Of a stretch of 32,000 nucleotides of DNA, positions 3,126 through 12,265 are shown piece after piece. Within the stretch, counting starts at the first letter, position 1, and every line of letters starts with the position of its first letter. The position numbers were made by a program, and so were the translations under genes. The notes beneath the pieces were generated by a model. That model was not told the DNA's origin, ran no database searches, and saw nothing but the letters and a program-made list of their open reading frames with translations. Source of the stretch: Methylophaga frappieri (lineage in GTDB: Bacteria > Pseudomonadota > Gammaproteobacteria > Nitrosococcales > Methylophagaceae); NCBI RefSeq assembly GCF_000260965.1, contig NC_017856.1:2010001-2042000 (forward strand), written 5' to 3'.

Positions 3126-3226
3126 CTTGTATGCTGACTATAACTAAAAAGTGAGTAATGACTTACCAATTTTATTTTTCATACAAACCGGTTTCATTGA
3201 GCGCTTAACTTGTTCAAAGATGAAAA

Positions 3227-3242
3227 TGTGATAGATTTCACA
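3227..3242. promoter_or_regulatory. candidate CRP (cAMP receptor protein) binding site
   Basis: There is a perfect TGTGA-N6-TCACA core (TGTGATAGATTTCACA) with an AAA/AAG flank. It lies in the AT-rich ligE-to-cassette intergenic region, ~130 bp upstream of the 3373 ORF. Only the motif is seen; function is not shown. Confidence 0.4.
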
Positions 3243-3342
3243 AAGTGAGGCCTGTTTCGCATGATTAAACTGCGCCGATGAAAATGCCGTGTTTGGTGAT
3301 TATTTAAGGATTACAGGGAATTTTATTCCCGTTAATAACAAG

Positions 3343-4216
3343 TTGGGCGGCAATTGAGGCATAGGAGTAGCTTTGGAAGTTAAGAACAATCCAGCGGGTC
3401 GCCTTCATGACCTTTTGCGTACTGCACAAAAACAACCCGCGAAAGAGAGGGCGCGGAATGCTTGGGGAAAAGTCTTTAAGGTAGAGCCAGGTGACACCGG
3501 TTTGCTGCTCGAAATGCTGGCGAACCTGATTGGTCTCGTGTCAGATACAAAAACGGCCATTGAACGCCTCGACGACGTGGATCACGCGCTGTACCTAAAA
3601 CCATTCAAGAAACTCGAGGTTTTCCTGTCGCAGGTGAACTTGGATGCAGGATGGGAACATTGGCAGAAGCAACTTGATGAGCCGACCCTTTACGGGTTGC
3701 AGTTTGCTGCGGATCGACTTTCGCGCAACAGCGGTAGCACCTCAATTTCTGAGAAGGACATCGAGGAGCTACAGGTTGAACTCGAGGAATTTGTTTCAAG
3801 CGTGCTCAAATCCGATCTTCCGTCTGGGCTAAAAGCACTGTTCCTGAGAAATCTTGAAGCTGTGCGCCACGCACTTTTGGTTTTTAGAATTCGCGGCATT
3901 GATGGCTTGGAGCACGAGCTGGAAAGGGCTATTGGTTCGTTGCTGCTCAATCAGGAGCATATTCCCCCAGCTGGAGATAAATCCGCTCCAAGAAAATTTT
4001 GGGAGCGATTCTTTGTTGTTATAGAACGCATCAATAAAGCGGTCACGCTGAGCCGAGGCGCGAAGGAACTTGCCGGCCCCGCAATGCAGGCCATTGAACA
4101 CATGATAGGCAAGTGAAGTTGCCGCCCAACAAATCGCTGCAGGGGACGTTTGACCCGCCGCCCATTTTTGCTTCCGCAAAAAGGGTCGTTGCCTCAAACG
4201 CCCCTGAGCTCAGGCG
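3343..4216 (+). mobile_element. integron-type gene cassette (single ORF plus attC) outside any visible integron
   Basis: The left junction is G|TTGGGC (3342-3348, fits GTTRRRY). The right junction is G|TTACGC (4216-4222). The left core is the exact complement of the attC inverse core GCCCAAC (4124-4130). Complementarity extends to 12 bp (3342-3353 GTTGGGCGGCAA versus 4119-4130 TTGCCGCCCAAC). The 874-bp unit has a short 5' leader, one ORF, and attC starting 8 nt after the stop. Confidence 0.7.
3373..4116 (+). CDS. hypothetical protein (247 aa, predicted largely alpha-helical, no signal peptide or TM segment); cassette cargo
   Basis: TTG start at 3373 with AGGAG at 3363-3367. The ORF is the longest in the interval and fills the cassette. 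I recognise no family signature. Confidence 0.6.
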   Translation: MEVKNNPAGRLHDLLRTAQKQPAKERARNAWGKVFKVEPGDTGLLLEMLANLIGLVSDTKTAIERLDDVDHALYLKPFKKLEVFLSQVNLDAGWEHWQKQLDEPTLYGLQFAADRLSRNSGSTSISEKDIEELQVELEEFVSSVLKSDLPSGLKALFLRNLEAVRHALLVFRIRGIDGLEHELERAIGSLLLNQEHIPPAGDKSAPRKFWERFFVVIERINKAVTLSRGAKELAGPAMQAIEHMIGK

Positions 4217-4222
4217 TTACGC
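4124..4222 (+). other. attC (59-base-element-type) recombination site, ~99 bp
   Basis: Elements in order:
- R'' GCCCAAC (4124-4130).
- Unpaired spacer AAATC.
- L'' GCT(G)CAGGGG(A)C (4136-4147), pairing with L' GCCCCTGAGC (4200-4209) and leaving G4139 and A4146 extrahelical.
- Variable arm stems GTTTGA/TCAAAC (4148-4153/4194-4199) and CCC(A)TTTTTGC/GCAAAAAGGG (4161-4171/4176-4185).
- Spacer TCAGGC.
- R' GTTACGC (4216-4222).
The outline resembles the aadA attC (…TCTAACAATTCGTTCAAGCCGAC…GGCTTAACTCAAGCGTTAGA). Confidence 0.7.
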
Positions 4223-4229
4223 AATGAAA

Positions 4230-4264
4230 GAATCAAAGGAGTCAGAGTCTGCCCCCTTTGATTC
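4230..4264 (-). terminator. candidate terminator hairpin downstream of metE
   Basis: 10-bp perfect stem GAATCAAAGG / CCTTTGATTC with a 15-nt loop. On the minus strand it is followed by TTTCATT. It lies ~96 nt past the metE stop. The T-tract is weak. Confidence 0.3.
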
Positions 4265-4359
4265 AACCGATAAAAAGTGTTGCCCCCACTCGCTTGATTA
4301 ATTAATTAGGTAAAACAACCACTAAGCCTCCTTGCTTTGCGGCTTATCTTTCGAAAACC

Positions 4360-6639
4360 TTACGCTACGTGTTGTTGACGCAGTTGTTTTGCGGCTTCTA
4401 CCATTGTTTGTAGTGCCGGTTTCACTTCGGCCCATTGCCGGGTTTTCAGACCACAGTCCGGGTTCACCCATAAACGCTCAGCCGGAATACGCTGCGCGGC
4501 TTTTTCCATCAGGCTTTTTATGTATTCCACCTTGGGAATATTTGGCGAGTGAATGTCATACACGCCGGGGCCAATTTCGTTCGGGTATGAGAAGGCATTG
4601 AATACATCCAGCAGTTCCATATCAGAGCGCGAGGTTTCAATGGTGATAACGTCGGCATCCATTGCGGCAATGGATTCAATGATGTCATTGAATTCCGAGT
4701 AGCACATGTGGGTGTGGATTTGGGTTTCATTTTCCACGCCATTGGCGGTAATGCGGAAACAACGCACGGCCCAGTTCAGGTAATCTTGCCATTCGGCGCG
4801 ACGCAGTGGCAGACCTTCACGTAAAGCGGCTTCATCGATTTGAATAATATTGACGCCGGCTTTTTCCAGATCCTGCACTTCATCACGAATCGCCAGCGCC
4901 AGTTGTAAACAGGTTGCTGAGCGCGGTTGATCATCACGCACAAACGACCAGTTCAGCATGGTGACAGGGCCGGTTAGCATGCCTTTTACCGGTTTATCAG
5001 TCAGTGATTGGGCGTATTTAATCCAATCCACGGTCATCGCTTTCGGGCGGGCGATGTCACCAAAAATAATCGGCGGTTTCACACAGCGTGAGCCGTAGGA
5101 TTGCACCCAGCCAAAGCGGCTAAAAATGTAGCCTTCCAGCTGTTCACCAAAATATTCCACCATGTCGTTGCGCTCGGCTTCGCCGTGCACCAATACATCC
5201 AGACCGACTTGTTCCTGCTCTGCAATCGCCCGTTGGATTTGCGCCTGCATTTTTCCCTGATACGCGGGAAAATCCAGCTCGCCTTTGCGAAACATTTGAC
5301 GCGCCTGGCGGATCTCGGTGGTTTGTGGAAAGGAGCCAATCGTCGTCGTTGGATACATCGGCAGATTGAATTTGGCTTGTTGTAACTTGGTCCGCTCCGC
5401 ATAAGGCTGCTGACGATTTGCTATGTCATCGGTGACAGACTGTAGGCGTTGTTGCACATCGTTGCGGTGAACGCGGCTGGAGGTTTGACGTGCCGCAATC
5501 GACTTGGCGTTGGCAGCCAGTTCTGCTGCAACGGCATCACGTCCTTCATTCAGTGCGGTTGCCACAATCGTCAGTTCTTCCAGCTTTTGTTCAGCAAATG
5601 ACAGCCAGTCTTTCACTTCGGCATCCAGGTCGGTTTCGCTATTCAAATCGACCGGCACATGCAGTAACGAACACGACGGTGCCAGCCATAAACGATCGCC
5701 AAGACGATTATGTATTGGCGCCAACCCGGCAACCAGATCGTTCAAATCCGTTTTCCAGACATTGCGGCCATTAATCACACCCATTGATAAGACTTTGTTT
5801 TCAGGTAAGTGACTAATCACATCAACAACCTCTTCAGCGGCATTGAGGGTATCGATATGCAAACCGGCGGTGGGTAATTCACAGGCCAGTCGCAGGTTTG
5901 TTTTCAGGCTGCCGAAATAGGTGGTGAGTAGTAATTTAACGGGGGCTTTGTTTAAGGCGAGATAGGCTTGGTTCAATGCCTGTTGCCAGTCGTCTTCGAG
6001 TTCGGTGACTAGAATGGGTTCGTCGATTTGCACCCATTCGATGCCTTCTTCGGCAAGTTGTGCTAGCAGCGCTGAATAGACGGGTAAGAGTTTGGGCAGC
6101 AGATCGACCTTGTTGCTGTCGTCTTTACTTTTACCCAACCAAATATAGCTGACCGGGCCAAGTAATACCGGTTTGGCGTTGACGCCCTGTTGTTTGGCTT
6201 CTCGCACATAAGACAGATAGCGATTAGCATGTAACTCAAAGTCCGTATCAGCAGCAAATTCTGGCACGAGGTAGTGATAGTTGGTATCAAACCATTTGGT
6301 CATTTCTGCTGCCGCTACCGGCGTTTGTTCAACGGCTTTGCTGGTTTGGCCGCGTGCGGCTTGAAAATATTGATCCAGTTCAGGCAGGTCACTCTGCGTC
6401 CGTTTCGGTAAGTTACCGACCAACAGGCTGGTATCGAGCACATGATCATAAAACGAGAAATCGCCAACAGTTTGAAAATCGAGTTTTTTCTGTGACTGCC
6501 AGTTTTGTTGGCGAATCGTGGCGGCGATACTCTCCAGATCCGCAACCATACTTTCGCCGCGCCAATACGCCTCTTGAGCGAATTTCAGTTCACGTTTTTT
6601 ACCAATACGGGGAAAGCCGAGGGTGTGTGTTGTGATCAT
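4360..6639 (-). CDS. metE: 5-methyltetrahydropteroyltriglutamate-homocysteine S-methyltransferase (cobalamin-independent methionine synthase)
   Basis: 759-aa two-domain MetE: N-terminus [23 protein letters not shown]; C-terminal Zn-site region HTHMCYSEF...[14 protein letters not shown] at 6647-6651 (minus strand) lies 7 nt before the ATG at 6639. Confidence 0.95.
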
Positions 6640-6843: not shown

Positions 6844-7641
6844 CTAATCCGTGCCGTCTAATAACCGACACAGTGTCTGGCGAATAATCTCTGGCTCAAA
6901 AGGCTTATCCATCAAAGCAGAGATGCCAGATTGCTGAACCTGACTCAGGCGCGTCTCATCTTGCTCACTGGTGACAATCAAAATCGGCAGAAAAGTATCA
7001 CCCAGTTGCTTACGAACAAATTGCGTCAGCGCCTGACCATCCATTTCCGGCATGTTTAAATCGCTGACTACTAAATCAAAGGGTTGTTTCTGTAAGTGAG
7101 TAATCGCTTCTAGTCCATTTTCAACCTTGACGATATGGCCAATACCGAGACTATCGAGAATTCGGCCAATGTGATTTCGTGAGGTGGTGCTGTCGTCCAC
7201 TAACAAGACGCGCAGGTTGGCCGGATCATAGTTTTCAAGCTGTAATTCTTGCGGATCAACGTGATCCACCGTGGTATGTAAAGCGCGGCGTAGATCTTCG
7301 GATTGAAATGGTTTTGGCAAAATCGCGACGACACCAGCCTGACGCAAGGGTTCGAGTGCTTCGGGATCGGTCTCGCTGGAGATCAGCATAAACAGACAAG
7401 CGGCGTTTTCGGCACGAATTTGCTGGAGTAATTCAACCGCAGTGCTGTCGGGTAAATACATGGCACTAATGACGAGATCCGGTGGATAACGACGGATTTG
7501 ATCCAAGGCTGCTTCAGCATCACTGACGCCATCAATTTTTTTCACACCAGCCGCTTGCAGCTCACGCATGATGATTTTTAGCTGTGTTGTTGAGGGTTCG
7601 ATCAGCAGGATCGAGAGTTGTGATTCATCAAGCTGCTGCAT
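6844..7641 (-). CDS. response regulator with two tandem receiver (REC) domains and no output domain; N-terminal REC is degenerate
   Basis: REC2 is canonical: LLVDDS, DLVVSDLNMPEMDG, IVTSE, DKPF. REC1 has EP in place of the acidic pair and Ala60 (codon 7462-7464) in DLVISAMYLPD where the phospho-acceptor Asp should be. REC1 keeps the Ser and Lys (LISSE, LPKPF). Confidence 0.8.
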   Translation of the reverse strand: MQQLDESQLSILLIEPSTTQLKIIMRELQAAGVKKIDGVSDAEAALDQIRRYPPDLVISAMYLPDSTAVELLQQIRAENAACLFMLISSETDPEALEPLRQAGVVAILPKPFQSEDLRRALHTTVDHVDPQELQLENYDPANLRVLLVDDSTTSRNHIGRILDSLGIGHIVKVENGLEAITHLQKQPFDLVVSDLNMPEMDGQALTQFVRKQLGDTFLPILIVTSEQDETRLSQVQQSGISALMDKPFEPEIIRQTLCRLLDGTD

Positions 7642-7655
7642 GGCGATTCCTGTGG

Positions 7656-8207
7656 TCAGGCGCTTAAACCGGCAGCAACCTGTTGTCTGCGGTTTGAGTC
7701 AGTTAATACTTCAACCAATGTTAAAGCAAATGCGATAGCCGTTCCGGGGCCTCTGGAGGTAATCCGTTTTCGATCAATGACAACGGCATCTGAACTGATT
7801 TGGACCAATGGGAAGGCGTCTGCTGTCAGCGTACCGGGAAACGCGGTTGCCTGGTAGTTATCCAGCAAACCATGTGTTGCTAATACACTGGGCGCAGCAC
7901 AAATGGCGGCCAGCCAGCGATCTTGCCTGCCATAATCGAGGAGTGATTGTTTAAGTCGGGTGTCGGCTAAAAGATGACGCGTGCCGGGCTGACCACCGGG
8001 TAAAACAATCATATCGAAGTCATTCACCGGTGTGTCAGCGAGAGATTGGTCAGCAACCAGTCGTACACCACGGCTGGCAGTGATATGAAGATTATCATCC
8101 AGACTAGCCGTGACCACCGATATGTCTGCACGACGCAGAATATCGATAATGGTCACGGCTTCCAGTTCTTCGCAGCCTTGTGCAAGTGGCACTAAAGCAG
8201 ATTTCAT
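7656..8207 (-). CDS. yajL: DJ-1/PfpI family protein (YajL-like deglycase/chaperone)
   Basis: The 183-aa ORF is collinear with E. coli YajL: E.EAVT.ID.L, VLPGG, nucleophile elbow AAICAAPSVLA, TSRGPGTAI.F. Confidence 0.8.
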   Translation of the reverse strand: MKSALVPLAQGCEELEAVTIIDILRRADISVVTASLDDNLHITASRGVRLVADQSLADTPVNDFDMIVLPGGQPGTRHLLADTRLKQSLLDYGRQDRWLAAICAAPSVLATHGLLDNYQATAFPGTLTADAFPLVQISSDAVVIDRKRITSRGPGTAIAFALTLVEVLTDSNRRQQVAAGLSA

Positions 8208-10729: not shown

Positions 10730-12265
10730 TTATTCGGTCGGTTCAACTAAGATATGTTTGCTCATTTCCGCTGGAATGGGCAGATCAATCAAGCTCAGCA
10801 TGGTTGGCGCAATGTCAGAGAGATTGCCGGTTTCACTGCATTTGGCTGGGCGGCCGGCAAAAACAAATGGTACTAAATTACTGGTATGAGCCGTGTGTGC
10901 TTGATCTTTACCAATATCATGCATTTTTTCGGCGTTACCGTGATCGGCGGTGATCATCATTTCGCCGCCAACGGCTTGCAAGGCATCCCAAACCTTGCCA
11001 AGGCAGGTATCCACGGCTTCAATAGCCGCCACCGCCGCATCGAAGTTACCGGTATGACCGACCATATCGGCATTCGCAAAATTACAAATAATGACGTCAA
11101 AGGTGTTGCTGTGAATTGCATCAACCAGTTTTTCGGCAACTTCCGGCGCGCTCATCTCGGGTTGCTGATCATAGGTCTCGACTTTTGGCGATGGCACAAG
11201 AATCCGGGTCTCACCTTCGTACGGTTGATCGCGACCACCATTAAAAAAGAAAGTCACATGCGCGTATTTTTCTGTTTCGGCAATACGTAATTGCTGTTTG
11301 CCATGATTGGCCAGGTAATCACCGAGTAAATTAGCAAAGCTTTCCGGCGGAAAGGCGATAGGTGCAGCAAAGTCTTTTTTGTACTGCGTCAGGGTCACAT
11401 ATTCAGCCAACGCAATTTGTCGCGGTTTAGCGAAGGCGGAAAACGTTTCATCAATAAAGCATTCAGTCAGTTCTCTTGCCCGATCAGAACGGAAATTCAT
11501 GAATAAAACACTGTCGCCATCTTCGACTTTGACCGGTTCACCAATCACCGTAGCTTTTACAAACTCATCATTTTCATCGCGCGCATAGGCATTATCCAAA
11601 CCGGCCTCGGGCGTCTCAGCATGAAAACTGCCCTCGCCTTCGGTAATCAAGTTGTAGGCTTGCTCAACTCGGTTCCAGCGTTGATCGCGATCCATGGCAT
11701 AGAATCGGCCAATCATCGTGGCGATTCGACCGGCACCACACTCGGTAAAGGTGCCAGCCATTGCGGCTAGCGCAGCATGGGCACTGCGTGGTGGCGTATC
11801 ACGACCATCCAGAAAAGCATGCACGTAAATTTGTCTCGCACCCCGCTGTGCAGCGAGTTTGACCATCGCTTGAATATGCTCAACGTGGCTATGCACGCCA
11901 CCATCAGATAGCAAACCCATGATATGAACAGCTTTATCCGCTTGGACGGCTTTATCCACCGCAGCAGAAAGGATGGGGTTGGTGAAAAAATCGCCATCGA
12001 GAATCGCTTTGCCGATACGGGTGAAATCCTGATAGATAATGCGGCCGGCACCGATATTCATGTGACCGACTTCGGAATTACCCATCTGCTCGCCAGGTAA
12101 GCCAACGCCAGTACCGGAAGCATGGATCAGGGTGCGGGGACAGGTTTGCCATAATTTGTCCCAAACCGGTGTCTTTGCCGCCAGAATCGCATTGTGTGCG
12201 GGATCTTCACTATGCCCCCAGCCATCCAAAATGATCAATGCCAGGGGACGAGGTGTCTGAGTCAT
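10730..12265 (-). CDS. gpmI: 2,3-bisphosphoglycerate-independent phosphoglycerate mutase
   Basis: 511 aa: [38 protein letters not shown]. The gpmI-envC-ctpA order is conserved in many gammaproteobacteria. Confidence 0.95.

Follow-up and report, generated by a model that had tools for sequence, protein, structure and literature searches.

The ligE–metE spacer of Methylophaga frappieri

The DNA analyzed here is a 32,000-nucleotide stretch of the Methylophaga frappieri chromosome (contig NC_017856.1, positions 2,010,001 to 2,042,000; hereafter the window). The spacer between ligE and the convergent metE gene in this window holds one integron cassette, at 3343 to 4216 on the plus strand, which consists of a ribosome-binding site (RBS), a 247-amino-acid (aa) open reading frame (ORF) and an attC site. 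Coordinates refer to the window and, unless otherwise indicated, features lie on its plus strand. The cassette unit, from T3343 to G4216, spans 874 bp and represents the linear form that results from recombination between the G and the TT of a GTT core (G|TT). It begins 217 bp past the ligE stop codon, shares the orientation of ligE, and ends 137 bp from the stop codon of metE.

The left host flank, AATAACAAG (3334 to 3342), was read directly from the sequence; its final base is the G of the target GTT. This G is also the first base of the 12-mer GTTGGGCGGCAA (3342 to 3353), the perfect complement of 4119 to 4130. Beginning with 3343, the 12-mer belongs to the cassette itself and represents its R′ half. 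The RBS, AGGAG (3363 to 3367), is located 5 nt 5′ of the TTG start codon of the cargo ORF (3373 to 4116; Q7C_2002, WP_014704561.1), and its GGAG is invariant in an alignment of four cassette 5′ ends. Only 7 nt separate the stop of the ORF from the inverse core (R″) of the attC site. The unit therefore harbors a single ORF with its own RBS, with an attC site close behind it in the same orientation, and is bounded on both sides at G|TT. No promoter-like site was found within the cassette 5′ of the ORF, and a weak promoter-like site is present at 3237 to 3265, upstream of the cassette. Because the cassette carries only an RBS of its own, the cargo would be expressed from outside it, either by read-through from ligE or from the weak site at 3237 to 3265. 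The GC content of the cassette (0.517) and that of its third codon positions (0.53) are the same as those of ligE and metE. Being indistinguishable from its neighbors, the composition is uninformative as to the age of the insertion.

On the metE side, a hairpin at 4230 to 4264, with 17-nt arms that are 88% complementary, is followed by TTTCATT on the minus strand. This hairpin, which lies 8 nt from the insertion point of the cassette, is probably the metE terminator.

Sequence, fold and covariance of the attC site

The attC site comprises 99 nt, from 4124 to 4222. R″, with the sequence GCCCAAC (4124 to 4130), was recognized from the sequence, a repeat search and the attC model described below, and its pairing reaches back to 4119. 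It is followed by an unpaired 5-nt spacer, AAATC (4131 to 4135), on the R″/L″ arm; by the L″ arm and stem (4136 to 4153), in which G4139 and A4146 are unpaired; by a variable terminal structure that forms an imperfect hairpin (4154 to 4193); by the L′ arm and stem (4194 to 4209); by an unpaired 6-nt spacer, TCAGGC (4210 to 4215), on the L′/R′ arm; and by R′, GTTACGC (4216 to 4222). The spacers and the L arms were assigned from the folds and the model alignment, and the terminal structure from the folds and the repeat search. The L-box pairs extend from G4136–C4209 to C4147–G4200, and the whole stem continues onward to A4153–T4194. R′ is a hybrid, in that the cassette ends with G4216 while TTACGC is host target sequence. 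Consistent with this, R″ fits the RYYYAAC consensus perfectly, whereas R′ has one mismatch to GTTRRRY, as expected for a hybrid junction, and pairs with R″ at only five of seven positions. The remainder of the cassette's own R′ is found at the other end of the unit, where GTTGGGC (3342 to 3348) pairs with R″ at all seven positions and, when extended, at 12 of 12. Indeed, the repeat search reported a perfect 12-bp inverted repeat between 3342 to 3353 and 4119 to 4130, and this 12-mer has just these two copies in the window even when one mismatch is allowed.

The top-strand bases G4139 and A4146, which are extrahelical, are C16 and T23 when read on the bottom strand, and a stem of 6 bp separates the two. 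In characterized attC sites (PMC5027507) the spacers measure 5 to 6 nt, position 16 is usually G, a T is conserved at position 23 or 24, and the 6-bp spacing of the extrahelical bases is needed for IntI1. The geometry of the M. frappieri site agrees with this description: its spacers are 5 and 6 nt, its bulges occupy positions 16 and 23, with the expected spacing and T23, and its length of 99 nt falls within the range of 57 to 141. At position 16 the site has C instead of the usual, though not required, G, and the same C is present in the related attC sites of four other loci (L079, L082, L001 and L086, introduced below). Folding of the bottom strand of 4115 to 4230 gave a z-score of −4.0, better than all 200 shuffles. 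When the attC of the circular form was rebuilt by joining G4216 to the TTGGGC that begins at 3343, the predicted energy was −39.1 kcal/mol with a z-score of −6.5, and again none of 200 shuffles was as good. In the rebuilt fold, a 13-bp R stem leads through an internal loop to an L stem, which carries two single-base bulges and is topped by an imperfect terminal hairpin. The sequence type of the site is GCTGCAG...CTGAGCTCAGGC.

Rfam contains no attC family, and its sole match in the window is a tRNA; hence, a covariance model was purpose-built from 14 attC sites of metagenomic arrays (loci L002, L003 and L079), none of them taken from cassettes homologous to the one studied here. In the model alignment 84.9% of cells are paired, compared with 25–41% when the alignment is slid, and 13 pairs are changed on both sides. 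Run on the window with filters off, the model gave a sole hit, full length, at 4124 to 4222 on the plus strand, with a score of 30.3 bits and an E-value of 9e-5, which is to be taken as approximate; the runner-up scored 9.4 bits. The window thus holds one attC site only. Applied to 883 kb from other loci, the model matched, beyond its training set, only the attC sites behind the homologous ORFs of L003 and L082 and one site in L069. Two heuristic attC scanners were set aside in favor of the covariance model, the first being much too permissive and the second noisy. The stricter of them, for all its noise, also ranked 4124 to 4222 first in the window. The L069 locus is a deltaproteobacterial contig from a metagenome-assembled genome, in which the model matches 7327 to 7427 and 7981 to 8046 on the minus strand (17.4 and 38.7 bits). 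The two sites form a small cluster within 1.3 kb downstream of a ligase gene, with no integrase in view.

An earlier interpretation of this DNA from its letters alone (the sequence-only reading) had placed R″, R′, the GTTGGGC at 3342 to 3348 and spacers of 5 and 6 nt at the coordinates at which we find them. It had also described an L-box duplex that leaves two extrahelical bases below an imperfect hairpin, 12 bp of complementarity between the ends of the unit, and a present R′ with two mismatches to R″. The folds, the model alignment and the repeat search bear out each of these points, and the two analyses on which its call of a canonical attC could be checked, a covariance search and a bottom-strand fold, agree with that call.

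A palindrome of this kind could, in principle, be a terminator, or a repeat like the repetitive extragenic palindromic (REP) or miniature inverted-repeat transposable (MITE) elements, lying beside an ordinary orphan gene that is no cassette. The site does lie between convergent genes, where terminators are expected, and single attC predictions were formerly regarded as possible false positives. However, the model score is far above background. In addition, the hairpin is followed not by a T-run but by TCAGGCGTTACGC and is not among the terminators returned by a scan for them; the separate hairpin at 4230 to 4264 already provides a plausible terminator for metE. A dispersed repeat would show many copies independent of ORFs, but the L″ motif has a single copy in the window, and the homologous palindromes elsewhere always stand behind an ORF, in cassette arrays. 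This explanation is exceedingly improbable, and we continue with the palindrome as the attC site of a cassette.

Array copies, boundaries and surroundings of the cassette

The cargo ORF has 71 homologs, nearly all of them metagenomic, and several are located in cassette arrays. In L002 an intI fragment (PF13495, tyrosine recombinase) on the opposite strand is followed by an array in which small ORFs of one orientation alternate with attC sites, at least 10 of them in a run, and the homolog occupies the second cassette. The L002 cassette begins GTTAGACGGCA and its attC begins TGCCGTCTAAC. In L079 the cassette, whose product is 93% identical in aa sequence, has another attC site before it and begins GTTGGGCGGCAATTGAGGCA..., as does the cassette in the window. 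In L082 the left end of the cassette reads ...GAGCTCAGGC|GTTGGGCGGCAA, and an attC site follows the ORF. Thus, the same cassette is found near an intI fragment in L002 and among other attC sites in L079 and L082, and in the latter two it opens with the identical 12-mer.

Comparison with these copies set the ends of the cassette. The window and L079 share 87.5% nucleotide identity over 3342 to 4116, but in the 40 nt upstream of 3342 the identity falls to 37%, the level of unrelated sequences. At the other end, the attC site is 83% identical to that of L082 as far as GGCGTT, while the next 40 nt past the GTT show 38% identity. The similarity to the array copies therefore starts at G3342/T3343 and ends just past the GTT at 4216 to 4218. 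These limits, which are also those given by L002, coincide with the 874-bp, one-ORF unit that the sequence-only reading had delineated. Further support comes from covariation between the 5′ end of the cassette and R″. The two are GGGC and GCCC in the window, L079 and L082, and AGAC and GTCT in L002, where compensating changes at two positions preserve the pairing. Such paired changes are expected of two halves of one R box.

Related attC sites were also observed in two other settings. In Pseudoalteromonas sp. CuT4-3 (L086; NZ_CP142031.1), an HD-GYP gene that starts at GTTAGGC is followed by an attC site (11347 to 12102 for the unit) that is 79% identical to that of the window, scores 14.6 bits and has an R″ decayed to GCCTAAA. 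The unit looks, from its sequence, like another lone cassette of the same attC type among ordinary genes, and its region is duplicated on a 65-kb plasmid (L087). In L001, an attC-like sequence of the window type at 4180 to 4268 has mutations in both R boxes (GCCTAGA ... GCAATTC), and a cargo homolog that has no attC site lies downstream of it, at 4830 to 5573. This locus has the appearance of a small decaying array within a chromosomal context.

The window shows no integron around the M. frappieri cassette. The other sizeable ORFs of the window are all housekeeping genes, and include genes of the tetrahydromethanopterin (H4MPT) pathway, the ligase gene, metE, a response regulator gene, a DJ-1 gene, ctpA, an M23 peptidase gene, gpmI, secB, gpsA, folB/folK, plsY, tsaD, dnaG, rpoD and pdxH. 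No intI or recombinase domain was found in window ORFs of at least 110 aa, and no insertion sequence (IS) element was detected. Likewise, no second attC site and no attI were found within the 32 kb, so that the window presents what has been termed a SALIN (single attC site lacking an integron-integrase). Domain searches and the attC model thus gave the same picture as the sequence-only reading, which had seen neither intI nor attI nor a further attC. At the left end of the window, 37 to 2199 is occupied by H4MPT-linked one-carbon (C1) genes (a pterin-binding DUF4346-like gene, DUF447 and 4-HFC-P synthase), which are consistent with a methylotrophic host.

A lone attC site could also be what remains of a former integron or array at this locus, from which the integrase, attI and all other cassettes were deleted and only the last cassette was kept. 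Cury et al. proposed that single attC sites, as well as clusters of attC sites that have no integron-integrase (CALINs), can arise through integron decay, and the decayed R boxes of the window-type attC sites in L001 and L086 indicate that decay does occur. Several features of the M. frappieri locus argue against it, however. Its R″, L box and ORF are intact. Neither a pseudogene nor a remnant of attC or attI is present in the flanks, which measure only 217 bp and 137 bp. At the left junction, which falls exactly on G|TT, no L′ or spacer sequence lies upstream, whereas L079, L082 and L002 all have these. Finally, related Methylophaga have no integron at the locus. Array decay is therefore, in our judgment, quite unlikely to account for a cassette whose boundaries instead fit a single insertion.

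The cargo protein itself, annotated as hypothetical, had no match in Pfam, NCBIfam, PADLOC or PHROGs. A profile search against the PDB returned only GajA, at a nonsignificant E-value of 0.43, and Foldseek found nothing in the PDB at E ≤ 0.001. Its predicted fold (AlphaFold2; predicted local distance difference test, 86; predicted template modeling score, 0.78) is all-helical. One match was obtained in BFVD, to an uncharacterized myovirus protein, and no relatives were found in IMG/VR. The ratio of nonsynonymous to synonymous substitution rates (dN/dS) relative to L079 is 0.06, a value which indicates that the gene is under purifying selection. The array neighbors of the cargo include Mrr, TIR, RelA/SpoT and CoiA-like nuclease cassettes. 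Copies that have no attC site or cassette boundary also occur, on a small mobilizable Mob/Rep/ParA plasmid beside an MmeI-type restriction enzyme (L083, 8833 to 9579; L084, 3777 to 4523) and directly after hsdR of a type I restriction-modification locus that also holds KwaA/KwaB (L085, 9617 to 10360). The frequency of restriction and defense genes among these neighbors hints at a defense-related role, and it is a further possibility that the cargo is an unrecognized defense-related protein that is now expressed through ligE read-through.

The attC-less copies on the mobilizable plasmid and in the restriction/defense island show that the gene is able to move by other means, and they lend some weight to a third explanation. 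According to this, the gene and its attC site arrived together without an integron-integrase (IntI), for example with a larger fragment that underwent homologous or illegitimate recombination, and the tidy boundaries of the unit are coincidental. Yet both ends match the IntI crossover, G|TT, to the base, the left end is the exact complement of R″, and the unit is flanked by no IS, transposase gene, tRNA or direct repeats. So precise a coincidence is highly unlikely, and the ends of the unit are better explained by recombination through IntI.

Probable insertion by an integron-integrase and comparison with known systems

Collectively, the attC model, the array copies, the boundaries and the R-box covariation support the conclusion of the sequence-only reading that a cassette was captured at a chromosomal site outside any integron. 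We consider that 3343 to 4216 is very probably a single cassette that was inserted by IntI into the M. frappieri chromosome and is thus a SALIN at a site of the attG type, attG being the name given to the GWT sites at which IntI1, IntI2 and IntI3 insert cassettes across the Escherichia coli genome (Loot et al., bioRxiv 10.1101/2022.09.11.507474). The event would have started from a circular cassette with a complete attC, in which R″ GCCCAAC was paired to R′ GTTGGGC. The bottom strand of this attC would fold into a hairpin, and IntI would then carry out recombination between this hairpin and a double-stranded GTT of the ligE–metE spacer in the genome (...AATAACAAG|TTACGCAATG...). A crossover at G|TT would leave the TTGGGC of the cassette at the left junction and, at the right junction, the hybrid R′ made of the cassette G and the host TTACGC. 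No target duplication is present at the junctions. The target deduced from them, AAG|TTA, has G at −1 and TT at +1/+2 and fits the GWT consensus. The empty site would accordingly have read AATAACAAG|TTACGCAATG, with AATAACAAGTTACGCAATG / AACAAGTTACGC as its uninterrupted form.

Several observations weigh against this reading or limit it. The covariance model was built by us and is not that of IntegronFinder, and its E-values are rough. The first extrahelical base of the attC site is C, where the usual base is G. Just 3.3 kb upstream of the cassette lies in the window, and the scan for intI and attC covered the 32-kb window. No second genome of M. frappieri was found, and searches based on LigE in species-representative genomes, JGI metagenomes and a set of 5.8 billion proteins returned no empty site; apart from the source itself, nothing in them was closer than 72–74% LigE identity. 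The Methylophaga loci that were recovered (L005 to L007; 6880 to 8370) have two genes in the ligE–metE interval, one for a 79-aa membrane protein and one for a LysR-type regulator. No alignment was obtained between their spacers and that of the window, and blastn of the flanks gave chance matches only. With other genes at the locus, these relatives at about 72–74% LigE identity showed no empty site. Because the M. frappieri interval (3126 to 4359) contains neither the membrane protein gene nor the LysR gene, it has been remodeled independently of the cassette.

The integrase would have acted in trans, and may be encoded elsewhere in the genome or may have been present only transiently. A more specific scenario, that M. 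frappieri has no intI anywhere in its genome and that the enzyme came in trans from, for example, a transient plasmid-borne integron, is possible but doubtful. If true, the locus would be natural evidence that the attG route moves cassettes of environmental chromosomal integrons, of the C16 attC type, into lineages that have no integron. In the literature, no text was found that links Methylophaga to integrons, and the accessible supplements of the IntegronFinder papers have no entry for the M. frappieri genome.

The attC site of the window can be compared with attCaadA7 (PMC5027507), which has G16 and T23. Both sites have AAC/GTT in their R boxes, 5-nt and 6-nt spacers, two bulges (positions 16 and 23) separated by a 6-bp stem, and T23. 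In contrast to attCaadA7, the M. frappieri site has C16, and with its 99 nt and long imperfect terminal hairpin it more closely resembles the attC sites of chromosomal integrons. As for its arrangement, the locus is like a CALIN (2016, PMC4889954) in that it consists of an attC-bearing cassette with no adjoining integrase. However, a CALIN has at least two attC sites within 4 kb, and here there is one attC site in 32 kb. Another parallel is the aadB cassette, for which RSF1010 (pIE723; Recchia and Hall 1995) and pRAY each provided a secondary site. These too are reported as single, complete cassettes, inserted with precision at a site that is not an att site and lies downstream of host transcription. 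They are resistance cassettes on clinical plasmids, whereas the cassette described here encodes a protein of unknown function and is located in a chromosome, in housekeeping surroundings.

The locus corresponds to the SALIN/attG system of Loot et al., who counted 3400 SALINs in 21,105 complete genomes. The view of the sequence-only reading that such a situation is rarely documented is thus outdated. As in a SALIN, the M. frappieri unit has one ORF and one attC site with no intI or other att site nearby, and its G|TT crossover fits GWT. Also in keeping with that system, the cassette is oriented as its upstream gene, which makes expression from a host promoter possible. Two differences stand out. 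The right-hand motif of attG hotspots, CRGM at +6 to +9, is not matched here, where the sequence is CAAT, and the present case is a natural one in a marine methylotroph rather than an experimental insertion in E. coli with IntI1, IntI2 or IntI3. Single attC sites were at first dismissed as possible false positives and have lately been explained by such laboratory insertions in E. coli. The element type is therefore already known, and the ligE–metE locus, which leaves the picture of Loot et al. unchanged, is a clean new natural example of it. The example is an uncommonly legible one, as the R′ half is swapped at both junctions, array copies of the cassette are known, and the host DNA is plain housekeeping sequence of a nonclinical methylotroph. 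It can thus serve both as a worked example and as a substrate for excision and insertion assays.

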